From IMG/VR virus record IMGVR_UViG_2671180747_000010, positions 1-12,505 of that record: 12,505 nucleotides of DNA; one strand, given 5' to 3'. Position 1 is the stretch's first letter. Each line of letters begins with the position of its first letter. The DNA comes from a virus. Its lineage: Duplodnaviria; Heunggongvirae; Uroviricota; Caudoviricetes. Of this stretch, positions 1 to 12,505 are shown in pieces. The translations under genes and the position numbers were made by a program. Below the pieces are notes generated by a model that was not told the origin of the DNA, made no database searches, and saw nothing but the letters and a program-made list of their open reading frames with translations.

Positions 1-6
1 TCGGGG

Positions 7-31
7 AAAAAAAACCCCGCCAGTGGCGGGG
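7..31 (-). terminator. Intrinsic terminator, tR'-like (minus strand)
   Basis: Perfect 7-bp GC-rich stem CCCCGCC(15-21)/GGCGGGG(25-31) with 3-nt loop; on the minus strand it is followed by an 8-nt T run (plus-strand A8 at 7-14). Confidence 0.55.
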
Positions 32-50
32 ATCTTTTGATAAAAACGAC

Positions 51-74
51 AAAGGCACCATTAAGGTGCCTTTT
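51..74. terminator. Hairpin with flanking T-runs on both strands (possible bidirectional terminator)
   Basis: Stem GGCACC(54-59)/GGTGCC(65-70), 5-nt loop, extended by AAA/TTT pairs; followed by TTTT on the plus strand and TTTGTCGTTTTT on the minus strand. Confidence 0.35.
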
Positions 75-204
75 ACACAGGGCAGCAGGCTTGTCATCAC
101 CTTATTGCTACTCCTGGCTTCCAGTTCGGAAGTCTCACAAGTCCCATCAGGGTACAGCGACAGTATCAGTCAACACTCTATGATTCTGCTGAACAGGCAG
201 TTTC

Positions 205-340
205 GCACTGTACATTATAACCTGTTAAGCCAACAAAAAACCCGCTCGGCGGCGGGGTTTGCTTACTTTGCCATCGCGAACAAAATCTGCAAAATATCAG
301 ATTTACACGGAATATATGCTCTTCAGTTCTATTTTGCAAG
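205..340 (-). promoter_or_regulatory. Candidate late promoter (pR'-like) region downstream of the Q-like gene
   Basis: Two minus-strand candidates: (a) -35 TTGCAA (334-339), 17-bp spacer, -10 TATATT (311-316), overlapping the Q stop; (b) a perfect -10 TATAAT (214-219) with a poor -35, placing a start ~195 nt upstream of the terminators at 7-74. Sequence-only call. Confidence 0.3.
235..257 (-). terminator. Intrinsic terminator-like hairpin after the Q-like gene (minus strand)
   Basis: Stem CCCGC(241-245)/GCGGG(252-256) with 6-nt loop; on the minus strand followed by TTTTTT (plus-strand A6 at 235-240). Confidence 0.4.
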
Positions 341-1012
341 ATATGGTTCTAAATTAATCGACTTTTGCCGTGAACGTACCCGCATTACTGAAATAAGAGC
401 ATCCCTGTCCAGCATCTCTGCACTACCCCGCATAGCCAACCAGTGAGGCCTGTGTGTTTTTGTCCATGTAGATTTAGCAACTCCTATGAACACCGCTAAC
501 TCCTGATGTTCATAGGTCTCACGCCCTGCCAGCTCACTCTTCACATCCTGTGCCGCCAGCCAAATCAGTTTCTTCAGACGATCCAGCGTTTTCCCTGCAA
601 TTTTTCTGGTACCAGCCTGAGCTTTAAACTCACCCCATACCCATTGTGTTATAGTGACCTGATCTTCCCAGCAAACATTTCCACTGTAGCACCACAGTAA
701 CCACGCCTTCTGATGTTCTTCCAGTTCCAGAACGGCACGCCGCCACGATGATGTTGCAAACTCAACCGGACTGACCAGCGCAATTGATGAGCCTTTCGCC
801 AGTGATTGTTTACCCGGGATCGGTTGATTATCCCGCGTGATCATTTTTCCGGTTACCTCATCGCGATAACGAATTTTTTTGCGTCTGTAACGCCCTGTAT
901 CGAACAGGGCATTCTCCTGCCAGGCTTCCAGCTGGCCTTTTGTCGCCCCACTGAGATCCGCAGTGGCAATCATGAGTTGCTCACGAACAAACTGTAAATA
1001 CTGGTTATTCAT
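329..1012 (-). CDS. Phage antitermination protein Q-like (227 aa from ATG at 1012; a GTG at 1018 is also in frame)
   Basis: Position immediately downstream of rusA, with the ATG overlapping the rusA stop (ATGA), and immediately upstream of promoter-like sequence plus terminators. Size is typical of the longer Q families. Assignment is mainly contextual. Confidence 0.5.
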   Translation of the reverse strand: MNNQYLQFVREQLMIATADLSGATKGQLEAWQENALFDTGRYRRKKIRYRDEVTGKMITRDNQPIPGKQSLAKGSSIALVSPVEFATSSWRRAVLELEEHQKAWLLWCYSGNVCWEDQVTITQWVWGEFKAQAGTRKIAGKTLDRLKKLIWLAAQDVKSELAGRETYEHQELAVFIGVAKSTWTKTHRPHWLAMRGSAEMLDRDALISVMRVRSRQKSINLEPYLAK

Positions 1013-1368
1013 GCGCACTCCAGTTCTGTGATTTTTATCCCCAGCCGCCCGCCAGGAACAGGCAGGCCACGCACAATATTGATTTCATCAAACTGCTCAT
1101 CGTCCATTAACAACCCCGCATGCGTAAGCGCATCCAGCGGCGCTTTCAGAATATTGTCCAGGTCACGGCGGCGCTTATCCGGTGGCTCTGCAATAATCCT
1201 GATTACCAGCCTTCCGGACAGGCTTAATTTCAGCCGCTGCTGGTTAACAATAAGCGCCACAGCACGGCGATAGCGCTTTCCCTCCTCCGAGATAAAATAT
1301 GTGCTGCCACGACGACGCCAGTAGGTGTTCACCGTTGGCGGGTAAGGTAAAACCAAATCTATGAGCAT
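1009..1368 (-). CDS. rusA: Crossover junction endodeoxyribonuclease RusA (Holliday junction resolvase), 119 aa
   Basis: Translation MLIDLVLPYPPTVNTYWRRRG...PPDKRRRDLDNILKAPLDALTHAGLL...GGRLGIKITEL aligns along its length with E. coli RusA as I recall it (LPWPPSNNRYY...PDRRRRDLDNLQKA...GGRLELTITE). Strong SD AAGAGGTG upstream. Confidence 0.9.
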   Translation of the reverse strand: MLIDLVLPYPPTVNTYWRRRGSTYFISEEGKRYRRAVALIVNQQRLKLSLSGRLVIRIIAEPPDKRRRDLDNILKAPLDALTHAGLLMDDEQFDEINIVRGLPVPGGRLGIKITELECA

Positions 1369-1380
1369 CAGTCACCTCTT

Positions 1381-2430
1381 TTACCCGAGCACGCCAGTCG
1401 CAAAGGCGTGATCAAGAAAATGAAAAATTAACTCAACCTGGGACCCGTACTTTTTCTCAAACTCCAGCGGGTCAGCATGAAGTTCGTTGTGGTGCTCCCG
1501 GCACAACGGTAGTGTGAAAATATCGTGGGATTTTGTCCCCATACCGCCCTGCCCATGGCCAATCAAGTGATGCGGATCATCAGCTGGCTTTCCACAGCAT
1601 GCACACGGCTGCGTCTTAACCCAGCGCGTGAACTTTTCATTAACCCAGCGACGACGTTTAGGCCGTTTCATGAAAGATTCCGGGGACTCCGGATCAACGG
1701 CGATGCTTACTACCGTCTTTTCCTGTGGCGTGGTTTGTGGCTGGTGGGCGTGAAGCGGTGGCGCTATGTTTTTTGTCCGCTGCTTCAGGATGCTGGTGGC
1801 GGTCTGCTCTCCCGGTATGATGTCGCTCTCACTGTATACGGAGCGAATTTTTTCCACCGGTAATCCCAGCGAACGACGCAATACAGATTCCGGAAGCGCA
1901 TCAGCCACCTGATTGCAGACCGCCCACCAGGATAATTCAGCCAGCGATAATTCACGCTCCTGTGCGCCATTCATTACGTGACGGATGACGTCAATCATCC
2001 AGGCGGCCAGATTCTGTTGAGCAAGTAGCTCCAGTGAATCAGATGTCTGCTCCCGCAGGTGGTTGTCGCAGTGCCAGCACAACACCATCGCGCCGGTACT
2101 GTAACGGTGAATGACGGTTTCGCTGTGATGATAATCGCCGTGTGGCCACTGGCAGGATTTCACGTGACGTAATAACCAGTCAGACAGTACACCAGCGCCA
2201 CCCGCAGCACGGATCACCCGCTCATCGCTGAAAAATGGCAGTAATGATTTATCTTCCGCCAGCGGCTGGCGAACGGCAGGTACAAACCCGGACGGCAGAG
2301 CACGCATGCTTTTCGGTTCCGGCTCCACCAGCACCCTGCCGCAATGAAAAACAGGCAGTGATTCGCGTCCGGGCTTAAGGACCACCAGGCCAAGTTCCGG
2401 CACCAGAACAGGTCGAAGTAATACCCGCAC
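1381..2430 (-). CDS. Phage protein, DUF968/YdfU-like, with C-terminal Cys/His-rich HNH-like motif (349 aa)
   Basis: C-terminus QPCACCGKPADDPHHLIGHGQGGMGTKSHDIFTLPLCREHHNELH is a CxCC...HH...C..HH zinc-finger/HNH-like signature. Size and position upstream of rusA resemble YdfU-type nin-region proteins. GTG start preceded by GGAGG. Confidence 0.7.
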   Translation of the reverse strand: MRVLLRPVLVPELGLVVLKPGRESLPVFHCGRVLVEPEPKSMRALPSGFVPAVRQPLAEDKSLLPFFSDERVIRAAGGAGVLSDWLLRHVKSCQWPHGDYHHSETVIHRYSTGAMVLCWHCDNHLREQTSDSLELLAQQNLAAWMIDVIRHVMNGAQERELSLAELSWWAVCNQVADALPESVLRRSLGLPVEKIRSVYSESDIIPGEQTATSILKQRTKNIAPPLHAHQPQTTPQEKTVVSIAVDPESPESFMKRPKRRRWVNEKFTRWVKTQPCACCGKPADDPHHLIGHGQGGMGTKSHDIFTLPLCREHHNELHADPLEFEKKYGSQVELIFHFLDHAFATGVLG

Positions 2431-2431
2431 G

Positions 2432-2704
2432 TTACCTCCAGATACGTTGCTGGAATGTGCGGGACGGACGCGGTGGACGTTCGGAATAAGGGAGCCTGAC
2501 AGAGATTATCCAGTGACGATAATTGAGGCTGAGGGCTTTCTTAACCTCGTATCCGCGCCTGCGGTAACACTGAATCAGCCATTCGGCCTGTTCTTCAGTG
2601 CATGGAGGATGCTGGTACCAGTGGGTTTTAAATACGTGCGAATGCCGCCCCCGCTTAATGGCCGGGACGGCTTCAGAATTGTGGGATTTTATATGTTGCG
2701 CCAT
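2432..2704 (-). CDS. Hypothetical phage nin-region protein (90 aa from ATG at 2704; longer GTG start at 2722 possible)
   Basis: ORF ends 1 nt before the DUF968 gene start (operon-like). The ATG at 2704 has a GGAG SD 6 nt upstream. No family recognised. Confidence 0.45.
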   Translation of the reverse strand: MAQHIKSHNSEAVPAIKRGRHSHVFKTHWYQHPPCTEEQAEWLIQCYRRRGYEVKKALSLNYRHWIISVRLPYSERPPRPSRTFQQRIWR

Positions 2705-2722
2705 CGGGTTCTCCGGTGACAC

Positions 2723-2876
2723 AGCAGGTGCCAGTTGTTCAGGCTGGCTGGATGATTTTAACCAGAATGCGATAAAAAGTGTATAAGACCATCACATATT
2801 GCATTCATGCAAAATGATTGTTACATAATATTACTTAATAAGTATAGGTTTTACCGTTTTATCATTAGAAGATTGT
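2723..2876 (+). promoter_or_regulatory. AT-rich divergent intergenic region, probable promoter of the PAPS-reductase/ParB-like operon
   Basis: ~150 bp strongly AT-rich between divergently oriented genes. Contains TTGCAT (2799-2804) then a 17-bp spacer and TACATAATA. The exact promoter is not resolvable by eye. Confidence 0.3.
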
Positions 2877-4103
2877 ATGTCAGGAACCATAACAAAAATC
2901 AGCACAGGGGAAAATGTTCTGTCAGCAGCAATCCATCGCATTGAATGGTTGTTCGAAACGTTTAATGAGGTCTGCTTGTCTTTTTCTGGTGGCAAAGACT
3001 CTACTGTGCTTTTCCATCTTGTGGCAGAAGTCGCCAGTAGAAAAAAACGTCGTTTTTCGGTTTTATTCATTGACTGGGAAGCCCAATATCAGTGCACGAT
3101 TAATCATATCCAAAAGATGAGGGAAATGTACCGGCATGTGACAGACAATTTTTACTGGGTAGCGCTTCCTCTGACTACGGTAAATGGCGTCTCTCAGTTT
3201 CAGCCAGAATGGATATGTTGGGAGCCAGGTGTAGAATGGGTTCGTCAGCCACCAGATGACGCTATTACAGATATGTCGTATTTCCCATTTTATCGGTATG
3301 CCATGACGTTTGAAGAATTTGTTCCGGCATTTTCTTCCTGGTTTGCCGGTAACCGATGTGGAGTGGGAATACTAACTGGTGTTCGTGCTGATGAATCGCT
3401 CAATCGCTTTATGGGACTGGTGTCTCAGCGCAAACTGAGATATGCAGATGATAAACCCTGGACCACCGCTTCACCCGATGGTTTTTACTACACCATGTAT
3501 CCATTGTATGACTGGAAAACAAATGATATATGGACGTATAACTCAAGAACCCGCGCCATCTACAATCCCCTGTACGACCTAATGTACCGTGCCGGAGTGT
3601 CGTTACGCAACATGCGTGTTTGTGAGCCCTTTGGCCCGGAACAGCGTAAGGGGCTGTGGCTTTACCATGTTCTGGAGCCGGAAACCTGGGCCAGGATGTG
3701 TGAGCGAGTGTCAGGGGCTGCCAGTGGCGCTCTTTATGCCAATGAAAGCGGTGCCTATTTTGCTCTGCGTAAACGAATCACAAAACCGGCTCATCATACC
3801 TGGCGCAGCTACGCAATGTTCATGCTGGATGTTATGCCAGAAAGAACAGCAGAACATTACCGTAACAAAATTGCAGTCTACCTGCGCTGGTATCAGACGC
3901 GGGGCTTCCCGGATGATATCCCGGATGAACAGGAGAATGACCTGGGGAGCCGGGATATCCCGTCCTGGCGACGTATCTGTAAGACGCTCATAAAGAATGA
4001 CTTCTGGTGCCGGACCCTCTCCTTCAGTCCGAACAAACCCCGGCACTATGAGCGTTATCTGCAACGAATGAAGGAAAGGAGGAAAGAATGGGGGATTCTG
4101 TGA
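2877..4103 (+). CDS. PAPS-reductase-family PP-loop protein (IbrA/YbdN-like; DndC/SspD superfamily), 408 aa
   Basis: N-terminal SFSGGKDS PP-loop ATP-pyrophosphatase motif; length ~406 aa matches YbdN/IbrA. Followed by an overlapping ParB-like gene, as in ybdNM/ibrAB. Confidence 0.85.
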   Translation: MSGTITKISTGENVLSAAIHRIEWLFETFNEVCLSFSGGKDSTVLFHLVAEVASRKKRRFSVLFIDWEAQYQCTINHIQKMREMYRHVTDNFYWVALPLTTVNGVSQFQPEWICWEPGVEWVRQPPDDAITDMSYFPFYRYAMTFEEFVPAFSSWFAGNRCGVGILTGVRADESLNRFMGLVSQRKLRYADDKPWTTASPDGFYYTMYPLYDWKTNDIWTYNSRTRAIYNPLYDLMYRAGVSLRNMRVCEPFGPEQRKGLWLYHVLEPETWARMCERVSGAASGALYANESGAYFALRKRITKPAHHTWRSYAMFMLDVMPERTAEHYRNKIAVYLRWYQTRGFPDDIPDEQENDLGSRDIPSWRRICKTLIKNDFWCRTLSFSPNKPRHYERYLQRMKERRKEWGIL

Positions 4104-4732
4104 CGCCTGAGATGGATGTACTAAGCAACATGATTCGTCAGTACTTCAGTCGGGAACAGCCCGAAGAAGAGTCCATACGAGCCCTTAACCATCTGCGCAG
4201 GGTACTGCATGAAGTCAGTCCTTTTGCACAGGAGCCTGTAGACTGTGTGCTGTGGGTGAAAGCGGATGAGGTGGTAGCCAACGATTATAACCCCAATGTC
4301 ATGGCACCAAGTGAGAAGAAACTGCTGAAGCAGTCACTGGAAAAAGATGGTTTCACACAACCGGTGGTGGTGTCAGAGGAGAAGAATCATTATCTGGTGG
4401 TGGATGGTTTTCATCGTCAGTTATTGGGCAGAGAATCAGTTACAGGAAAACGTCTGAGGGGCTGGCTGCCTGTAGCCTGTATTAATCCAGAGAGAAAAGG
4501 GCAAGCCGCACGCATTGCCGCAACCATTCGACATAACCGGGCTAGGGGGAAACACCAGATAGACTCAGTGTCTGATATTGTAAGAGATCTTTCACGCTTG
4601 GGATGGGCAGATGAACGCATTGGCACTGAGTTGGGTATGGATCAGGATGAAGTACTGAGACTTAAACAAATTAGCGGGCTAACTGAGTTATTTCAGGAAG
4701 TGGATTTCAGCCCGGCATGGACAGTTAAATAG
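4088..4732 (+). CDS. ParB/sulfiredoxin-fold (DGxHR-like) protein, IbrB/YbdM-like, 214 aa
   Basis: VVDGFHRQ motif and an arginine-rich segment (ARIAATIRHNRARG) typical of ParB N-terminal-domain/DndB-like proteins. Start overlaps the upstream gene by 16 nt with an AGGAGG SD (translational coupling). Confidence 0.8.
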   Translation: MGDSVTPEMDVLSNMIRQYFSREQPEEESIRALNHLRRVLHEVSPFAQEPVDCVLWVKADEVVANDYNPNVMAPSEKKLLKQSLEKDGFTQPVVVSEEKNHYLVVDGFHRQLLGRESVTGKRLRGWLPVACINPERKGQAARIAATIRHNRARGKHQIDSVSDIVRDLSRLGWADERIGTELGMDQDEVLRLKQISGLTELFQEVDFSPAWTVK

Positions 4733-4785
4733 CAAGCTCGACTTACTCCCGGCAAGGCAACAAAATGATAACTAATACAACTCAA

Positions 4786-4808
4786 GGGCGATTAATATCG
4801 CCCCTTTT
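4786..4808. terminator. Hairpin between convergent genes (possible bidirectional terminator)
   Basis: GGGCGAT(4786-4792) TAAT ATCGCCC(4797-4803) followed by CTTTT on the plus strand. The T tract is weak. Confidence 0.35.
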
Positions 4809-4897
4809 ACTGCTCAATTTTCGACCGATACATCTACTTGACTCTCGTTTTACTCCCCCTTTTTACCCGATATGGAAATTCCCATATCGTAATGAAT

Positions 4898-5002
4898 TCA
4901 GCTCCCCAGACGATCCATCAAAAGCACGACCAGGCAGTAAACACCCACAACAACAATAACGGCCAGAGCGCCTTCCATTGCCAGTGAGATATCATCCGAC
5001 AT
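4898..5002 (-). CDS. Small hydrophobic peptide (34 aa), predicted single transmembrane helix
   Basis: ATG preceded by AAGGAGG SD. Translation MSDDISLAMEGALAVIVVVGVYCLVVLLMDRLGS. Not in the supplied ORF track (below its size cut-off). Confidence 0.45.
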   Translation of the reverse strand: MSDDISLAMEGALAVIVVVGVYCLVVLLMDRLGS

Positions 5003-5037
5003 ATTCCCTCCTTTGGTGTGAATCCCGGCGAACGTTT

Positions 5038-5121
5038 TTACCCCCACCGACAAATAACATATATTAAAAAAGCGATAACCATAGCAACGCCTGTAATTGC
5101 AAATGCTTCAGGCCAGTTCAT
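5038..5121 (-). CDS. Small hydrophobic peptide (27 aa), predicted single transmembrane helix
   Basis: ATG overlaps the stop of the upstream DUF551 gene (ATGA) and is preceded by AGGAGGTG SD. Translation MNWPEAFAITGVAMVIAFLIYVICRWG. Confidence 0.45.
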   Translation of the reverse strand: MNWPEAFAITGVAMVIAFLIYVICRWG

Positions 5122-5630
5122 TGGCGCACCTCCTGCGGCGGTTCTGGTAGCGGCATCCAGCCGGTTACATTGCGGCTCTGTGTTTCGAAAAATTCATCAC
5201 CATTACGGACTACATCAAAAAACTCACCGTCTCGATATTGCGCATAAAGAACGAATGCGCCATCACATAAAATAATTACGTGCTGACCATCATCCGGCAT
5301 TCGCTCACTACAGCTTATCCAACCATCCGGAGTTACCGGATAGTTGGTTGACGTTTCCGAGATTTCCCGAAAATTATTGGTTGACGACCCCTTATTTTCC
5401 CGAAAGTTTCCAGCCTGAAGCATGGCGGCGCGGTGACACCAGATAATCCAGCCAAGCGCCATATCCCATGCCATGTATTCTCTATCGCCATTTTTTGCTC
5501 TGCGGCGATCTACAGATTCTCCGAAACGCTTCTCCATAAATAATTCATAGGCTGCTCGTTCATCCGATACTGCTGCCAGTGATGCCAGCGCAATCCGTGC
5601 CAGCTCTTCCGCTTCTTCTGCTGGAAGCAC
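5118..5630 (-). CDS. DUF551-type phage protein (170 aa from GTG); likely N-terminally disrupted (see finding)
   Basis: C-terminal DGWISCSERMPDDGQ...GWMPLPEPP resembles the DUF551 signature (W-x-S-x-x-D-x-LP ... GWMPLP). An in-frame upstream ATG at 5705 with SD is cut off by TGA at 5682-5684. Confidence 0.6.
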   Translation of the reverse strand: MLPAEEAEELARIALASLAAVSDERAAYELFMEKRFGESVDRRRAKNGDREYMAWDMALGWIIWCHRAAMLQAGNFRENKGSSTNNFREISETSTNYPVTPDGWISCSERMPDDGQHVIILCDGAFVLYAQYRDGEFFDVVRNGDEFFETQSRNVTGWMPLPEPPQEVRQ

Positions 5631-5977
5631 AACGTTGCTACCCGGTCCGTATGTTTCGCGCCAATGCTGGATTGTCAGCAGTCAATCTTTGGTAATAGTG
5701 GTCATGCCGCGTTTCCTTCTTTCTTATTGTAACCAGGTGAATCATTTGATACCAACGAGGGTTTTAGTGAAAGGAGGTGAAATCACCTGTAAGATACTGA
5801 AATAAAACAGGTGATGTCTGGATGAGCGCTTAAAGTCTATTTGATATCGATTGTGCAATAATTAATCGTTTATTCTAAAATCGGCAAAACTTTTGATACT
5901 GCGATCTCAACTTTTTAAAGCGTTTAAAACTTCATTAAATCTATATGGCAACTAACATACGGGCCAGCCTCGCCAAA

Positions 5978-6508
5978 CTAACCCGCTTTAGATTCTACCG
6001 GATTTGATTGCCTACTTGTCTCGGTTTTTTCCAAAATCTCTCTGACGCAATCGTCTGGCATATCTACAATCATCAACGCAGCCAGGCGCTTCCTGCCTTC
6101 TAGTTGTAATAAATCTTGGTTTTCTTTATTCAGCAGTGTCAGAACCGTCTCTACACCTTTGCGAGCAAGGAGATTGGTTAACTGTTCTCGTTCGTCTTTC
6201 GTAAGGAATGAAAGCATCTGTGTAAGCTGATCTCCCTTATCACCAGAACAACCAAAATTACCATAAATACCAATATCGTTTGGTAATTCACCCTTGCCCT
6301 CTTTAAGCCACTCAAGACTAACGCCTTCACTTTCAGAAATTCGTATAAGGATACTTTCTCTGGGGGCTGGTTGTGTTTGTCCTCCCTTGAAATAGCTGTT
6401 TAATGTGTTGATATTGATTCCCCACGCTCTGGCAGCTGCACTTCTTGAAGGGTAGCGCTTTGTAAGCATTCCAATACGTTCAATAACAGGTTCTTTTCCC
6501 TGCGACAT
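5978..6508 (-). CDS. Mu-like prophage repressor (c-like), HTH DNA-binding protein, 176 aa from ATG at 6508
   Basis: Leftward gene divergent from ner/A/B, as for Mu c. ATG at 6508 has an AAGAGG SD; the track's longer 6583 start lacks one. Putative HTH segment RSAAARAWGININTLNSYFKG; C-terminal part loosely resembles Mu c. Confidence 0.7.
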   Translation of the reverse strand: MSQGKEPVIERIGMLTKRYPSRSAAARAWGININTLNSYFKGGQTQPAPRESILIRISESEGVSLEWLKEGKGELPNDIGIYGNFGCSGDKGDQLTQMLSFLTKDEREQLTNLLARKGVETVLTLLNKENQDLLQLEGRKRLAALMIVDMPDDCVREILEKTETSRQSNPVESKAG

Positions 6509-6590
6509 AAAGATACCTCTTGGTGCTTTTCTAAGGAAAGGTTTCTTTCTATTTATCCAATTGAAAAATAAGGATAAAAGCAAAAATTAG

Positions 6591-6639
6591 CCAAAATACC
6601 AAAAATACCTTGATTTGGTATTTTTGGTGATGCATTATT
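6591..6639. promoter_or_regulatory. Operator-like palindrome overlapping a candidate early promoter (Pe-like) for ner-A-B
   Basis: Perfect 12-bp inverted repeat ACCAAAAATACC (6598-6609) / GGTATTTTTGGT (6617-6628) with a tandem CCAAAATACC copy at 6591-6600. Overlaps -35 TTGATT (6610-6615), 18-bp spacer, TG-extended -10 ATTATT (6634-6639). Confidence 0.45.
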
Positions 6640-6650
6640 TACCCGTACAG

Positions 6651-6670
6651 ATATCCGCACGAATATCCGC
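6651..6670. promoter_or_regulatory. Direct repeat ATATCCGC x2 at 12-bp spacing upstream of ner (possible Ner/IHF-type site)
   Basis: ATATCCGC at 6651-6658 and 6663-6670, between the candidate Pe and the ner SD. Confidence 0.25.
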
Positions 6671-6698
6671 GCGGGTAACTTTTTAGAATAGAGGAAGT

Positions 6699-6947
6699 AT
6701 GAGTAGAAGAGAAGTTTCAGATCACGATTGGCCGCCTGAAATCATCAAGGCGCGCTTACACATGGCTGGCTTATCACTGCGCTCTTTATCTTTAAAGGCT
6801 GGTTACAGCAGGGATTCGCTGAAAAGCGTATTACGTACTCCTTGCCGACCGTATCAGCAAATAATTGCTGATGCTCTTGGGGTATCACCTGAAGAAATCT
6901 GGCCCAGTCGATACCAGGTTAAGAGCTATATGAGAAAGGCGTCATGA
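6699..6947 (+). CDS. ner: Ner-like DNA-binding transcriptional regulator (Mu Ner / Nlp family), 82 aa
   Basis: DWPPEIIKARLHMAGLSLRSLS...IIADALGVSPEEIWPSRYQ matches Mu Ner / E. coli Nlp (DWHPADIIAGLRK...IWPSRY). SD GAGGAAG upstream; located between repressor and transposase. Confidence 0.88.
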   Translation: MSRREVSDHDWPPEIIKARLHMAGLSLRSLSLKAGYSRDSLKSVLRTPCRPYQQIIADALGVSPEEIWPSRYQVKSYMRKAS

Positions 6948-6948
6948 T

Positions 6949-9039
6949 ATGTATGTCATTGCAAAAGAACTGATTGGCGCGCCCGGAATGCCTGCTACAA
7001 CAAAAGGTATTCGCCAGGCATTACAACGTTACGTACAAGGGAAAAGCTGTTGTTCCCGTCGTCGCTCAGGCTCTAAAGCAACTGAATACAGCATCGACTG
7101 TTTACCTGAAGTGACGCAGCAGGCATTACGTGAACGCTACGCCCTGCAACTGATGACGCAAAAAGCCGATGAATCACCGGCTCCGGTGGTGACAAAGGCC
7201 AGACGCTCACCTGCCGTGGTTGATGCGGTGGAGGCATATCGCGGATCACCCCAACTGATGGTCGAACGCCTCAATGCCCTGACTGAAAACCAACGTAAAG
7301 TGGCAGAGGCACGAATAGCGATCGTCAGCGAGGTGCTGAAAATCGCGCAACAACCCGGCTTTAGTTGCGCTAAGGCTATCCGGTTCCTCGTTAACAGCCT
7401 GGCACGATCACAACTGGACGAGCGCATTGTGGCAATGGTTGAGACGGCGAACGCCAAAAAGGGAAACAGCCGCGCGTTGAGTGAAATCACGCTGAAACGC
7501 TGGATTGCGGCCTTTAACAAGGCACAGAACGCCGCTGAACGCCTGCTTTTACTGGCACCGGGTAAACGCCAGGAAATAAAAGCCGAAGATATTAACTGGC
7601 TGCCCGAATTTCTGGCGCAGTATCGCCAGTCAAACGGCCGACCAATGACCGAGGCTTACGAGGATTTTGTTGCTGAATGGCAGCACCGGCACGCTGATGA
7701 GCCTTATATGCTCGATATCATGCCCTCTTATGACACCATTCGCCGCGCAATGAAGAAACTGCCGGAAGTGGTGAAACAAAAAGGCCGGGTAACTGGCAGT
7801 GAATACCGTCAGCTTGAGGGATTCACGCGCCGCGACTGGTCCAGAATGCCGGTGAATTATGTCTGGATTGGTGACGGTCACGGCATGAAGCTGAAATGCG
7901 CGCACCCGGTTCACGGGCGGCCATTCGCACCGGAAGTGACCTTTGTTATCGACGGTGGCACGCGCTTTGTGGTGGGCTGGAGCCTTGACCTGGCTGAAAA
8001 TGTTTTCGCCGTAGCCGGTGCCATACAGCACGGTATTCGCCATCATGGCAAACCGTTTCTGTATTACTCGGATAATGGCTCCGGGGAAACCGCCGACGTC
8101 CTGGATAAGGAGATTGTGGGGATACTGCCACGACTGGGGATTAATCACCCGACAGGGATTGCCGGTAATCCGCAGGGACGGGGCATTATCGAACGGCTTA
8201 ACCGCACATTACCGATGCGCATAGCCCGTAAATACCGCACCTATTTCGGGAAAGGAGCAGATCGCGAGACGTTACGTAAAACCAACCGCGATTTACGCTC
8301 GGCATTCAGTGCCCTGCAACAGGGCAAACGGCTGAACGCCCGGCAGCAGTCAGCGATGCGTGATTTACCGTCCTGGTCTGAACTGATTGATGCCATTCGT
8401 GACGGTGTTGAGTGGTACAACAACCGGCCGCACGATGAATTACCCATGAAGCCGAACGGTAAACATTACAGCCCGGCGGAGTTCAGAAAAAAACGCCTGG
8501 CGGAAGAGGACACGGAAATTGAATGGCTGTCCGATGTGGAATTGCGGGACATGTTCCGGCCGATGGTGGAACGCCCTGTAAGACGCTGTGAAATACGCTG
8601 GCTGAATAATATTTACTACGCGCCCGAGCTGCGTGATGAACATGGCCGCAAAGTGCTTATCAGCTATGACATTCATGATGCCGAACGAATTACCGTGCGT
8701 CGCCTGGATGGCAGCGTGATTTGCGAGGCGGTATGGGACGGCAATAAACGCGAAGCCTTCCCGGTCAGCGCGGAATACTACAAACAGCAGCAGCGTCTTA
8801 AAGGCATGCGTAAACGCGCAGAGGAAAAAATTCGTGATGCCGAGGATGAGGTTATCAACGTGCTGGAGCACAAGCCGCAGGAGCCATGGCTGGAAAACAT
8901 ATACCGCCCTATGGGTAATACGGTGGCCGTTCAGCAGCCAGCGATTGATGATGAACCTGACGAAGAATACGAGCGTAATTTCCAGCGGGGATTACAGCTG
9001 CTTGAAGCGAAATTAAAAGAAAATGACCCGCTGGCCTGA
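6949..9039 (+). CDS. Mu-type DDE transposase (MuA-like), 696 aa
   Basis: Starts 2 nt after the ner stop. Candidate DDE-region motifs VWIGDGHG and YYSDNGSG. C-terminus YRPMGNTVAVQQP...DEEYERNFQRGLQLLE resembles the MuA C-terminus (FRPSGNTERV...DDEYETERDEYLNHSLDILE, from memory). Confidence 0.92.
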   Translation: MYVIAKELIGAPGMPATTKGIRQALQRYVQGKSCCSRRRSGSKATEYSIDCLPEVTQQALRERYALQLMTQKADESPAPVVTKARRSPAVVDAVEAYRGSPQLMVERLNALTENQRKVAEARIAIVSEVLKIAQQPGFSCAKAIRFLVNSLARSQLDERIVAMVETANAKKGNSRALSEITLKRWIAAFNKAQNAAERLLLLAPGKRQEIKAEDINWLPEFLAQYRQSNGRPMTEAYEDFVAEWQHRHADEPYMLDIMPSYDTIRRAMKKLPEVVKQKGRVTGSEYRQLEGFTRRDWSRMPVNYVWIGDGHGMKLKCAHPVHGRPFAPEVTFVIDGGTRFVVGWSLDLAENVFAVAGAIQHGIRHHGKPFLYYSDNGSGETADVLDKEIVGILPRLGINHPTGIAGNPQGRGIIERLNRTLPMRIARKYRTYFGKGADRETLRKTNRDLRSAFSALQQGKRLNARQQSAMRDLPSWSELIDAIRDGVEWYNNRPHDELPMKPNGKHYSPAEFRKKRLAEEDTEIEWLSDVELRDMFRPMVERPVRRCEIRWLNNIYYAPELRDEHGRKVLISYDIHDAERITVRRLDGSVICEAVWDGNKREAFPVSAEYYKQQQRLKGMRKRAEEKIRDAEDEVINVLEHKPQEPWLENIYRPMGNTVAVQQPAIDDEPDEEYERNFQRGLQLLEAKLKENDPLA

Positions 9040-9120
9040 AATAAAAAAATAACCCGAGGGGTAACTCAGGTTATTTGGGTTTCAGTCTCGGAGAATGCTG
9101 TCTCAAGCGAGGTAAATAAT

Positions 9121-10053
9121 ATGACTGATATTAACGATGTAATCAAGACCATAGATGAACTTATTGATGGCGGCGTACTGACGCAGTATGCCATCGCCAG
9201 GGAGGCGGGAATTTCCGACGGCACATTATCGGCTTTCCGCAAAGGGAAATATAAAGGAGACAATGATGCTATAACGGCGGCCATGCTTTCCTGGTATGAA
9301 AACTGGAATAAACAAAGCGCACTGTCCGAGCTGCCACAGTTTGTGGAAACGCAGACAGTCCAGGAGCTGCGCGCACTGTTTCAGGCGGTTCGCCTGATGG
9401 GCTGTATTAACGTCATAGTGGGCGTGCCGGGTGTGGGTAAAACGGCCACCGCCCGTAATTACTGCCAGGAGCAACCGAACACCTGGATGATCACCCTGTC
9501 ACCCGCGCACTCCAGCGTCACGGAGTGTCTGCTGGAGCTGGCAGAGGAACTGGGGATTGATTACACCCGCGCGAACAAAGGGGCATTATCCCGCGCCATC
9601 CGCCGTCGCCTGATGGGAAAGCGCGGACTGGTGATTGTTGATGAGGCTGATCATCTTGGTATTGACGGTCTGGAGCAACTCCGGGCAATCCAGGACGCCA
9701 CAGGGGTCGGGATGGTGCTTATTGGTAACCCAAAGGGGCTGTTTAAAGGCGGACGCCGCGCCGTTGATGATTTATCTCGCCTGTTCAGCCGTCTTGCCCG
9801 TACAAAACAACTACGCAAGGCCAAAAAAGCGGATGTGCTGGCTATTGCCAGGGCATGGGGGATTAGTGGTGAGGCCGAGCTGGCTGTCATGCAGGCTATC
9901 GCTGAAAAACCGGGGGCATTACGCGTTCTGACGCATACGCTTAACCAGGCGTGGATCACCGCCAGCGGTGAAGGTGCGGCACTGACAGAAAAACATATTA
10001 ATGCGGCCTTTAAAGAGGTTTATGCCAACCCTGAATTACTCTCACAGGTGTGA
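9121..10053 (+). CDS. Mu B-like transposition ATPase / target DNA activator, 310 aa
   Basis: Walker A GVPGVGKT. Extensive similarity to Mu B as recalled (GTLSAFRKGKYKGDN vs GTISSFINDKYNGDN; LPQFVETQTV; GLVIVDEADHLG; KKADVLAIA; KPGALRVL). SD GAGGT upstream. Confidence 0.92.
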   Translation: MTDINDVIKTIDELIDGGVLTQYAIAREAGISDGTLSAFRKGKYKGDNDAITAAMLSWYENWNKQSALSELPQFVETQTVQELRALFQAVRLMGCINVIVGVPGVGKTATARNYCQEQPNTWMITLSPAHSSVTECLLELAEELGIDYTRANKGALSRAIRRRLMGKRGLVIVDEADHLGIDGLEQLRAIQDATGVGMVLIGNPKGLFKGGRRAVDDLSRLFSRLARTKQLRKAKKADVLAIARAWGISGEAELAVMQAIAEKPGALRVLTHTLNQAWITASGEGAALTEKHINAAFKEVYANPELLSQV

Positions 10054-10055
10054 TT

Positions 10056-10277
10056 ATGATTGCATTTAATATTCCTGATATTTACGGACGCTTTCACCTG
10101 GTGAATTTCGATAACGTCAAAGCAGTCTCCGTGTCTGACAGTGAAGAATGTGGCGATTTACTTTTTGAATTTAATGATCGCACCAGAATGGCAATATCGG
10201 CAGGACTTGATCGTGAAGGTGCGAAAGAAGCTTACAGCAATATTTGTCGTTTTATCGGTGCAAAACGAATCAGCTAA
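10056..10277 (+). CDS. Small protein in the Mu kil position (73 aa from ATG at 10056)
   Basis: Immediately follows the B stop (GTG at 10050 overlaps it; ATG at 10056 has an AGGTG SD). Size and position match Mu kil, but no sequence-level recognition. Confidence 0.5.
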   Translation: MIAFNIPDIYGRFHLVNFDNVKAVSVSDSEECGDLLFEFNDRTRMAISAGLDREGAKEAYSNICRFIGAKRIS

Positions 10278-10289
10278 ACGAGGTGTTAT

Positions 10290-10922
10290 ATGAATACGCA
10301 GATACAGCAGGAAATCAATGTTCTCCACAGCTTTCGAGAGTTTAACGACAATGGCTGTGAGGTTCGTGATTATATCTATGAATTGATGATCGGTGATGGT
10401 GTGTGTTTTCTGTATATAGACCTGTATCAGTGGTATGCAGACATGCAACTTGATTCCATCAGACGCCGTTTTAATCATGAATGCTTTGATGTGGATGTAT
10501 GGGAAAGCCTGCGCTTTGGTTTTCTGATTATGGATGATTATCGCCAGGGGTGGCGACACGGTTACTCCATTCTTCGTGCAATCATGCGTGGCGAAACCCG
10601 AAAAATTCCGGGGATGGGTAAAGTTAATCGAGGCTTCCTGTCAGAGCTGGCTGCATTGCGCATGAATCCATTACTGATACAACCGGAGTTCCCTATGAAT
10701 TTGTTTGATTCACTGAATAACGCCCGCCGCCTGACTGAACTTGCTGGTGCGGTACTGGAGCGCAGCAAACGCTACCCGCAACGTTTTGCACTGAAAACCA
10801 CGCCGCCGGTAAACGAAGTTAAGGGAACCGGTGAAATTGAAATCACCGTTAAGACCAACGGCCTGCGCCGCCGTGTGAAGGCCACCCGTATAAGCGGATG
10901 CACGGTTTACTGGGAAGTATGA
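10290..10922 (+). CDS. Hypothetical protein of the Mu-like early (semi-essential) region, 210 aa
   Basis: Long ORF co-oriented with the early operon with a GAGGTG SD. No recognisable motifs. Confidence 0.55.
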   Translation: MNTQIQQEINVLHSFREFNDNGCEVRDYIYELMIGDGVCFLYIDLYQWYADMQLDSIRRRFNHECFDVDVWESLRFGFLIMDDYRQGWRHGYSILRAIMRGETRKIPGMGKVNRGFLSELAALRMNPLLIQPEFPMNLFDSLNNARRLTELAGAVLERSKRYPQRFALKTTPPVNEVKGTGEIEITVKTNGLRRRVKATRISGCTVYWEV

Positions 10923-10996
10923 AGTTGCTTCATGGTTCGGCTCTGTCATCAGGTCAGACGCCGGGTCAGTTATCCGAACAAAACGAGGACCAGAGG

Positions 10997-11194
10997 ATGA
11001 GTAAAGTCGTACGCATTATTTTCGAATACAAGGAGCACGTTATCCATAAAAACGCGGATGGAACAGTGCGCATGGGGGTAAGTCTGGACATACGTTCAAC
11101 CGGGATAAAGCAGAAAGGTGATGGACCTGCCATGATTTTTGGGGGGGGGTTATGCTCGCGGAAAGCAGAGACTTTGCTGAACTTGTGGCAATGA
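10997..11194 (+). CDS. Hypothetical early-region protein, probably truncated by a frameshift at the G9 tract (intact reading would be 10997..11271, ~104 aa)
   Basis: ATG at 10997 with SD AGGACCAGAGG. A 9-G homopolymer at 11141-11149 separates it from an open frame that runs to a stop at 11269-11271, 5 nt before gam. Confidence 0.4.
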   Translation: MSKVVRIIFEYKEHVIHKNADGTVRMGVSLDIRSTGIKQKGDGPAMIFGGGLCSRKAETLLNLWQ

Positions 11195-11275
11195 AAGCCA
11201 GTGCGCTCATGAAAGATATGGACATGAGTTCCGGGGTTATTAAAGGTAATGAATTTAATCAGCAGGGGTAATTCC

Positions 11276-11827
11276 ATGAGCAAAGTACGNNNNNNNNNNN
11301 NNNNACGCGTTACAAAATTAAAGGCCGCAGCCGAGGCGGCACCGCAGACCCGTGAAGAGGTCAGCCGCGATATCCGACGCTTTGGGGATATGCAGCGTGA
11401 GGCACTACGCCTGGAAACGGCGATGAATGACGAAGTGGCAGAAATCACCGCCCGTTATACGCCGCAGATTGAAAACCTTAAAAAAGAAATCAAAGTGCTT
11501 TTTAAGGGGATTCATGACTGGTGTAAAACCAACCGCAATGAGCTGACGAACGGCGGTGAAACCAAAACTGCCAATCTGACCACCGGAACGGTGTCATGGC
11601 GGCTGGGAAATCCATCATGCAGCGTCAGTCGTGATGTGGAAGGTGTGATTGAAATGCTGCGTCGTATGGGGCTTGAGCGCTTCATCCGCACGAAAGAGGA
11701 AGTGAATAAGCAAGCTGTCCTGGCAGAGCCGGATGCGGTGAAAGGGATTGCGGGTATTAAGGTGAATAAAGGCGCTGAAAATTTTCATGTCGAGCCTTTT
11801 GAACAGGACGCCGGACTGAATAAATAA
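11276..11827 (+). CDS. gam: Host-nuclease inhibitor Gam (Mu Gam family), ~183 aa, containing a 15-N gap
   Basis: DIRRFGDMQREALRLETAMNDEVAEIT...NELTNGGETKTANLTTGTVSWR...LERFIRTKEEVNK...EPFEQDAG matches Mu Gam as recalled (DIKRIGDLQREASRLETEMNDAIAEIT...DELTNGGKVKTANLVTGDVSWR...LQRFIRTKQEINK...IPFEQEAG). Confidence 0.88.
   Translation: MSKVXXXXXXRVTKLKAAAEAAPQTREEVSRDIRRFGDMQREALRLETAMNDEVAEITARYTPQIENLKKEIKVLFKGIHDWCKTNRNELTNGGETKTANLTTGTVSWRLGNPSCSVSRDVEGVIEMLRRMGLERFIRTKEEVNKQAVLAEPDAVKGIAGIKVNKGAENFHVEPFEQDAGLNK
11290..11304. other. Run of 15 ambiguous bases (N) - assembly/scaffold gap or masked bases inside gam
   Basis: Directly visible in the sequence; true length of the missing segment is unknown. 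Confidence 1.
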
Positions 11828-11911
11828 CACCGCATTAAATCTTTAAATATCACATCGTTTTAATTATGGCGCTCGCGTCAGGGGACTGCTCGCGCCTGAA
11901 TGAGGCATGTC

Positions 11912-12490
11912 ATGAGTATTAAATATCGTTATTTTAAAATGAATGAGAGCGATTCCCGTCATTATCACAGGGAATGGCTTGATTGTGTTGGCAGGGAGCG
12001 CCAGAAATTGATTGATGATTTTCTCAGTAATCAGAATGCCAGAGGGTATTGTTATTCCTGGTATTGTGGGGATTTTTTTGTCAAATCAATACTGGTGCAT
12101 GAGGATGTTGATGTCGGAAGAAATAAACGGGTGTTGTCTGATAAATTTGATGAAGATGGCCGTACTTTATTTTCAGTTAAGCCCGACCGCAGATTCAGAG
12201 AGGGAAAAAAACTGAACAAAGCACTGAATATCTTAAACGAGAAGTTAAAACAGCTTCCGTCATTCAGTACCTGGATGGTTAATAAACTGGACTGCTATTT
12301 TGAGGTTTTTGGTGTCAGCAACGGCCGCACAGTTATGGCGTGCTCTTCTGCCGGGTTCTATGGCGACAAAGGGGCTGTTGTGGTTCGTATTCCTGTCGGT
12401 GAATCAGATAATGCCTTTTCACCTGAAAAGCTGCATCCGTCATTGATGGCAATCAAGCATTCCGAATTCATCGCAATAACGGAGGAATAA
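11912..12490 (+). CDS. Hypothetical protein, AT-rich accessory gene downstream of gam (192 aa from ATG at 11912)
   Basis: ATG at 11912 with GAGG SD 6 nt upstream (the track's start at 11900 lacks one). No recognisable motifs; the gene looks AT-rich by eye relative to the neighbouring A/B/gam genes. Confidence 0.55.
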   Translation: MSIKYRYFKMNESDSRHYHREWLDCVGRERQKLIDDFLSNQNARGYCYSWYCGDFFVKSILVHEDVDVGRNKRVLSDKFDEDGRTLFSVKPDRRFREGKKLNKALNILNEKLKQLPSFSTWMVNKLDCYFEVFGVSNGRTVMACSSAGFYGDKGAVVVRIPVGESDNAFSPEKLHPSLMAIKHSEFIAITEE

Positions 12491-12493
12491 TTC

Positions 12494-12505
12494 ATGATTG
12501 ATGCA
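12494..12505 (+). CDS. 5' end of a further early-region gene (partial, runs off the window)
   Basis: ATG at 12494 preceded by GGAGG SD (12481-12485). Only 4 codons visible. Confidence 0.3.

Follow-up and report, generated by a model that had tools for sequence, protein, structure and literature searches.

The stretch of DNA considered here, termed the window, comprises 12,505 nucleotides (nt; positions 1 to 12,505) of the IMG/VR virus record IMGVR_UViG_2671180747_000010, a member of the Caudoviricetes. It carries a two-gene module, ibrA and ibrB, which is an intact, full-length member of the IbrA/IbrB (YbdN/YbdM) family. The two genes overlap by 16 nt, such that the start codon of ibrB lies inside the 3′ end of ibrA, behind a Shine-Dalgarno sequence recognised by reading of the sequence. 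The module is antisense to the lambdoid nin/Q genes that surround it, with every flanking gene located on the minus strand (Table 1). An earlier note on this DNA had described two coupled plus-strand genes in just this orientation, a description that is borne out by the open reading frame (ORF) coordinates, the overlap and the AGGAGG motif.

The 5′ side of ibrA is formed by an AT-rich leader, presumed to be a promoter or regulatory region, with a G+C fraction of 0.36 at positions 2700-2999 vs about 0.5-0.59 in the flanks. This leader is possibly a target of H-NS-type silencing, and the leader flank is common only to 11 genomes with this prophage variant. On the 3′ side, a hairpin that is terminator-like on either strand, and that is followed by CTTTTACT, separates the convergent ibrB gene from a small ORF and the DUF551 gene on the minus strand.

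The IbrA and IbrB proteins

IbrA is composed of two domains. The N-terminal domain, which contains the PP-loop motif SFSGGKDS, matches PAPS_reduct (PF01507; 2.3e-16, 60.8 bits against a cut-off of 22.5), and the C-terminal domain matches DUF3440 (PF11922; 2.7e-33, 115.7 bits against a cut-off of 25). PHROG 2302 also matches the protein, at 1.4e-85. The DUF3440 half is helical, with no PDB relative detectable by sequence profile. Comparison of the N-terminal fold assigns IbrA to the PAPS-reductase-like branch of the PP-loop ATP alpha-hydrolases, a branch that includes the FAD synthase PAPS domain, CysD and the APS/PAPS reductases, with TilS, TtuA and other PP-loop enzymes ranking after these. 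IbrA likewise carries the invariant nucleotide-binding residues of the branch, and among 77 family representatives of 30-55% identity, the residues conserved to at least 91% are S37-G-G-K-D-S42, D66, E68, R170, E173, S174, R177, D212, W213, D217, N230, Y233 and D234. The assignment of gene 1 to the PAPS-reductase family by the earlier note is thereby upheld.

No cysteine of IbrA is conserved in more than 48% of these 77 representatives, and C249 occurs in 45%. IbrA is therefore neither a PAPS reductase nor an iron-sulfur (Fe-S) enzyme of the DndC type. An Fe-S or catalytic-cysteine role was considered for C249, C275, C368 and C378 and set aside, as these residues are invariant or at least 90% conserved in enterobacterial sequences only and not across the family. 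Instead, the intact PP-loop and the likeness to FAD synthase and CysD suggest a chemistry of ATP alpha-beta cleavage with AMP transfer. This likeness amounts to 20-21% identity over about 170 residues to the PAPS domain of the eukaryotic-type FAD synthase and to CysD, which lack DUF3440 and a ParB-like partner; the CysN-type GTPase partner is, in turn, missing here.

IbrB contains the motif VVDGFHR and is matched by PHROG 2159 (“ParB-like”) at 4.5e-83. The Pfam ParB_N model matches only weakly (7e-4, 20 bits vs a gathering threshold of 26.3), and the IbrB family profile matches Helicobacter pylori ParB/Spo0J (4umk) at 1.5e-5 and Noc at 4e-3. In these alignments, the DGFHR segment falls on the GERR CTP box of the ParB N-terminal domain. 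Because of this profile match, with DGFHR on the GERR box, IbrB is classed by sequence as a ParB/sulfiredoxin-superfamily protein of the DGxHR type and not as a canonical ParB, in agreement with the ParB/DGxHR-like label given to gene 2 in the earlier note. The domain matches of both proteins are far beyond chance. Invariant in 44 IbrB sequences are N68-P-N70, D106-G107, H109-R110 and T146-I-R-H-N-R-A-R-G154. The motifs NDYNPN, DG(F)HR and TIRHNRARGxH are kept family-wide, and all invariant residues are present in the window copy. Identity between the IbrB proteins of Escherichia coli and environmental phages is 45-60%, and the C-terminal region is, in our reading, a predicted helix-turn-helix.

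Canonical ParB, Noc and VirB share the N-terminal ParB fold with IbrB. In place of their GERRxR CTP-binding box, IbrB carries DGFHR, as do the sulfiredoxin, DndB and SbnI-type members of the superfamily. VirB provides a precedent within the ParB family for an anti-silencer of virulence genes. The window contains no ParA-like ORF, and no parS site came to light, no search aimed at one having been made.

The DndC/DndB, SspD and BrxP systems likewise join a PAPS-reductase-family PP-loop enzyme to a protein of the ParB/sulfiredoxin fold. Matches of the pair to PADLOC-DB v2 are nevertheless partial, namely to BrxP over residues 17-96 (4.5e-8), DndC (6e-5) and PglX (4e-3), and no DndB model of that database matches IbrB. 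The DndA/IscS, DndD and DndE partners have no counterpart among the window ORFs, and IbrA carries DUF3440 instead. The suggestion of the earlier note that the pair forms a minimal DndC-like plus DndB-like module does not hold: the DndC equivalog model TIGR03183 scores 16.2 bits against a cut-off of 290.4, and a family-wide cysteine is missing.

Distribution, cargo slot and adhesin genes

RefSeq names the two proteins “phosphoadenosine phosphosulfate reductase” and “IbrB-like domain-containing protein”. IbrA is 58% identical to YbdN of E. coli K-12 (b0602) over 405 amino acids (aa), and IbrB 56% identical to YbdM (b0601), full length in both cases and with the same gene order and overlap, such that the relationship to IbrAB and YbdNM named in the earlier note is confirmed. 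DNA at least 99% identical over the ibrAB region occurs in nine complete E. coli genomes, and copies of 80-90% identity, which match the two ORFs only (window 2870-4731), in about 2100 of 5426 (about 40%). The exact IbrA and IbrB proteins are found on 268 and 537 public contigs, respectively, and the family is of moderate size, with 310 clusters at 50% identity that score E ≤ 1e-30.

Pairing was surveyed in 80 viral and 79 bacterial loci with a gene for a relative of IbrA. In each of the 79 bacterial loci this gene is accompanied, on its own strand, by a gene for an IbrB homologue, with an overlap of either 16 nt (35 loci) or 28 nt (25 loci) in 60 of them. A same-strand partner is also present in 77 of the 80 viral loci, and in the other three IbrA starts no more than about 400 nt from the end of the contig. 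The pairing of ibrA with ibrB is thus effectively obligate, and the homologous pair recurs well beyond the window.

The IbrA/IbrB proteins of strain ECOR-9, as compared through annotated copies in RefSeq and phage PhiR5_2 and not through the ECOR-9 proteins themselves, have the same overlapping two-gene architecture and the same domains. The DNA of these copies is 83-88% identical to the window over exactly the two ORFs (83% for the PhiR5_2 IbrA and IbrB genes), and the pairs of this type are likewise associated with a YadA/Eib-type adhesin gene. The window pair is a distinct allele, with about 87% identity to the common island form, or roughly 12% DNA divergence. It also differs in occupying a lambdoid nin-region slot with flanks of its own, whereas the others lie in a chromosomal island near cobU or on plasmids. 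What is already known of the window pair is its kind, its family name (since 2002), its annotation labels and its exact sequence. New as leads are the strictness of the pairing, the slot held by either hokD or ibrAB, a probable link with an eib-type gene of the same prophage, and the four-gene phage variants discussed below.

The chromosomal copies have a setting of their own. As a conserved operon of the chromosome, ybdNM follows the gene for the LysR repressor CitR/YbdO and adjoins ybdL, in contrast to the window copy, which is mobile and without a LysR gene. Across 27 enterobacterial species (loci L129-L162), ybdNM-type copies have a LysR gene upstream, and the ybdL aminotransferase gene and methionine-salvage genes (mtnA/B/C/D/K-like) downstream; ahpF lies farther upstream in these 27 loci. 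In K-12, the LysR protein CitR/YbdO acts as the repressor of ybdNM (PMC9068703), such that the paralogue behaves as a regulated accessory pair. The neighbours in the remaining bacterial loci are mixed and include transposases, transporters, metabolic genes and PerC. Activators of the PerC type adjoin ibrAB in three loci (among L084-L120), and an adjacency of ibrB and perC, with co-induction on epithelial cells, has been described in Shiga toxin-producing E. coli (STEC; PMC7649339). At one ibrAB locus, a gene for a 37-kDa nucleoid-associated protein (NA37) is situated within about 4 kb. This recalls the candidate “PANGU-like” clusters of a 2026 preprint, in which a nucleoid-associated protein is paired with a PAPS reductase, and also with Arc and ParBc proteins.

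Positions 1-5728 of the window are 99.95% identical to positions 17403-23129 of locus L001, part of a lambdoid prophage of E. coli STEC2018-607 located next to ompW. The two differ by a single 1-nt length difference and about three mismatches over 5.7 kb. In STEC2018-607, ibrAB lies between the replication/ead genes and the DUF968-RusA-Q genes, on the opposite strand. When the flanks alone serve as the query, the two are found close together, at one matched place, in 358 complete E. coli genomes, and hokD is annotated at that place in 30 of 30 records among the matches listed. At the inspected locus of E. coli O157:H7 strain 493/89, the type I toxin gene hokD lies between the flanks where the window has ibrAB. 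Because O157:H7 prophages hold hokD in the same slot, the view of ibrAB as moron-type, exchangeable cargo of the nin region is supported. The AT-rich leader and the hairpin, which the earlier note had taken as moron hallmarks, are both present alongside this slot replacement, but the module's own promoter, also assumed there, did not emerge from a sigma-70 consensus scan of positions 2723-2876, which gave no promoter-like site. Examples of other sites of ibrAB are a chromosomal island, beside cobU, and a plasmid.

IbrA and IbrB are co-activators of the prophage eib genes, whose products are immunoglobulin-binding trimeric autotransporters of the YadA type, and raised eib expression is the only phenotype reported for the pair (Sandt et al. 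2002, as cited in PMC7649339). The tail-fibre end of the STEC2018-607 prophage contains a gene for a YadA-like trimeric autotransporter of 488 aa, at a distance of 39 kb from ibrAB. Matches to this gene are rare (67 of 5426 genomes), yet it is matched in all nine genomes with an ibrAB region of at least 99% identity, and in at least six of these nine it lies 38-40 kb from ibrAB. These distances are consistent with residence of ibrAB and a YadA/Eib-type gene in the same prophage. On plasmid p100 (IncFII, strain 317), ibrAB is situated 2 kb from a gene for a YadA-family autotransporter adhesin, with an OmpA-family gene also near. These layouts fit an arrangement of regulator plus target and agree with the published role of IbrAB in eib activation.

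Candidate roles of the IbrAB pair

IbrAB is read here, with slightly more confidence than doubt, as a cargo pair that acts on DNA and de-represses silenced prophage cargo such as an eib-type adhesin gene. Under this proposal, the pair would be transcribed from its nin-region slot against the phage early operon, and translational coupling would yield IbrB and IbrA in a fixed ratio. The two proteins may then form a complex on DNA, to which IbrB would bind through its predicted helix-turn-helix in a nucleoside triphosphate (NTP)-dependent, ParB-like manner, and IbrB would recruit or license IbrA. Using ATP, with AMP transfer and release of pyrophosphate, IbrA would modify a target that is nucleic acid or is bound to chromatin. 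In the lysogen, AT-rich, silenced prophage cargo, of which an eib-type adhesin gene is an example, would thereby be de-repressed. Both DNA as the site of action and the AMP-transfer chemistry are inferred. A nucleic-acid-directed enzymatic activity is plausible, and the union of a ParB-type NTPase with a DNA-acting enzyme recurs elsewhere, as in DpdB with DpdA and in GmrSD (PMC12839542).

Several observations weigh against this proposal. Since ibrAB copies of 80-90% identity occur in about 2100 genomes and the eib-type gene in 67, the pair is far more widespread than its presumed target, and eib activation cannot be its general function. The co-occurrence in nine genomes is that of one prophage lineage, with no independent origins behind it. 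Homologues of both proteins in environmental phages reach 47-55% identity, which suggests a universal substrate and not a host-specific promoter. In viral genomes, moreover, the modules lie on the same strand as, and among, genes for the sliding clamp, single-stranded DNA-binding protein (SSB), DUF1376 and homing endonucleases. Formation of an IbrA-IbrB complex is deduced from the gene overlap only, the leader yielded no promoter-like site in the scan described above, such that a promoter belonging to the module is presumed, and the single-sequence AlphaFold model of IbrB is unusable, with a predicted local distance difference test (pLDDT) score of 42. Finally, the literature searched contains no paper establishing the biochemistry of IbrAB/YbdNM and no assay of a family member, in accord with the earlier note.

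The main alternative, which is considered rather doubtful, is that IbrAB serves as a phage DNA or RNA modification module, for example against host restriction. In this case IbrA would activate a position with AMP, IbrB would provide DNA loading and the NTPase, and eib would be activated incidentally, as modified DNA evades silencing. The viral loci argue for such a role. The gene order in 43 of the 80 is IbrB - X - IbrA, where X denotes an orphan protein some 130 aa long (125-155) with the consensus ...AWLGxAAC...PEDLTR.AWG..., and 17 of the 80 also encode a GNAT acetyltransferase adjoining IbrA, usually between IbrA and IbrB, with the modules embedded in replication gene clusters. Protein X has no Pfam match, and a homology search returned unnamed hypothetical proteins only. 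Both IbrA and IbrB are very highly conserved across unrelated phages. The nearest domain-level matches in PADLOC, BrxP and DndC, are DNA-phosphorothioation enzymes, and ParB-type partners of DNA-modifying enzymes are known, DpdB being one (PMC12839542). Against this stand the missing sulfur-donor gene and conserved cysteine, and the enterobacterial two-gene form: neither X nor GNAT genes were found when sought in the window and in the 79 enterobacterial loci. The LysR-repressed chromosomal paralogue ybdNM, in its metabolic neighbourhood in 27 species, also speaks against a modification module, as does the antisense orientation of the pair to the early operon in the window, on account of which it would not be expressed together with the replication genes. 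The papers searched report no modified base for ibrAB-positive E. coli. A formulation that would bridge this alternative and de-repression is advanced only tentatively: IbrAB may be the minimal form of a widespread phage nucleic-acid modification machine, built from a PP-loop AMP-transferase and a ParB/sulfiredoxin NTPase with GNAT and X added in environmental phages, and its covalent DNA mark would relieve the silencing of Eib adhesins in E. coli lysogens.

It is improbable that ibrAB is a moron which the lysogen expresses for defence against phages or for superinfection exclusion, as the defence-type label of the earlier note would have it. The slot is a cargo slot that elsewhere holds hokD, and the “PANGU-like” candidate clusters with PAPS reductase and ParBc proteins would be in keeping with defence. 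A comparison of 109 neighbour proteins with PADLOC and Pfam gave scattered defence matches only, however (Kiwa 2, DRT reverse transcriptases 2, others singly), and the mixed surroundings of transporters, PerC, transposases and metabolic genes are not the signature of a defence island. In addition, the PADLOC system models are matched by weak domain hits only, many lytic-looking and temperate phage contigs keep the module in their own replication regions, and the core-genome paralogue ybdNM is widespread.

A toxin-antitoxin or addiction module, which automated predictors suggest for ParB/DUF3440 pairs, is more improbable still. The tight bicistronic overlap, the Hok toxin in the same slot of related prophages and the mention of DUF3440 in a toxin-antitoxin prediction survey (PMC7020466) point towards it, but both proteins are large and enzyme-like with highly conserved catalytic-type motifs, no toxin fold is present, and core chromosomal settings keep the pair stably. 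Sulfur assimilation, with IbrA as a genuine PAPS/APS reductase that raises cysteine synthesis in the host, a reading to which the RefSeq product name, the PAPS_reduct match and the fold match would lead, is effectively refuted by CysH equivalog scores far below cut-off (NF002537, 37.6 vs 154 bits; TIGR02057, 33.5 vs 254), by a canonical SGGKDS PP-loop that is kept without a conserved C-terminal catalytic cysteine of the ECGLH type, and by the constant coupling of IbrA to a ParB-like protein.

IbrAB/YbdNM is among the more widespread E. coli gene pairs without a known biochemical function; K-12 itself has ybdNM, and phages from many environments encode homologues. Its chemistry, if solved, would explain by what means an immunoglobulin-binding adhesin is turned on by a prophage, which task YbdNM performs in K-12, and for what reason phages of many kinds retain the pair, sometimes with a GNAT protein, in their replication modules. 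The window adds no new kind of system. It is a compact natural test case, with the regulator pair in a slot of its own and the presumed target 38-40 kb off in sister genomes.

Other features of the window

Table 1. Positions of the ibrAB module, its motifs and neighbours in the window, and of the related features at other loci named in the text.
Feature	Position	Strand	Remarks
ibrA (gene 1)	2877-4103	+	408 aa; TGA at 4101-4103
ibrB (gene 2)	4088-4732	+	214 aa; ATG at 4088
Shine-Dalgarno AGGAGG for ibrB	4077-4082	+	within ibrA 3′ end, 5 nt 5′ of ATG 4088; sequence reading
AT-rich leader 5′ of ibrA	2723-2876	+	presumed promoter/regulatory region
Hairpin GGGCGAT-TAAT-ATCGCCC	4786-4803	both	perfect 7-bp stem; terminator scan
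PP-loop SFSGGKDS	IbrA residues 35-42		N-terminal PAPS-reductase-like domain
VVDGFHR	IbrB residues 104-110		ParB/sulfiredoxin-type N-terminal domain
Antiterminator Q	329-1018	-	
RusA	1009-1368	-	
DUF968 protein	1381-2430	-	
Small ORF	2432-2722	-	96 aa
DUF551 protein	5118-5630	-	
Mu-like c-type repressor	5978-6583	-	
Mu-like ner-like gene	6699-6947		
Mu-like transposase A	6949-9039		
Mu-like B	9121-10053		
YadA-like autotransporter	locus L165 16766-18232		STEC2018-607; 488 aa; after tail-fibre genes, Eib-type position
Plasmid p100 ibrAB/adhesin area	locus L164 3919-5817 and 8004-9859		
hokD slot	locus L166 1456-1611		E. coli O157:H7 493/89; equivalent to window 2723-4810
Example viral loci with X/GNAT	L036 5240-5632; L054 5243-5665 and 5631-6017; L023 3723-4136		

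The remainder of the window, positions 5729-12505, belongs to the left end of a transposable prophage of the Mu-like kind, which has inserted into its lambdoid host prophage directly upstream of the DUF551 gene. The insert splits the lambdoid replication genes from nin/Q, and the host prophage is therefore probably crippled for late-gene activation. The sister genome STEC2018-607 lacks the insert, and the Mu/lambdoid junction of the window occurs in no complete E. coli genome of the collection. A run of 15 N at positions 11290-11304, from an assembly gap or masking, breaks two ORFs of the Mu-like prophage. The same Mu-like end is found elsewhere in rhsD, citrate lyase, ypdB and other genes.

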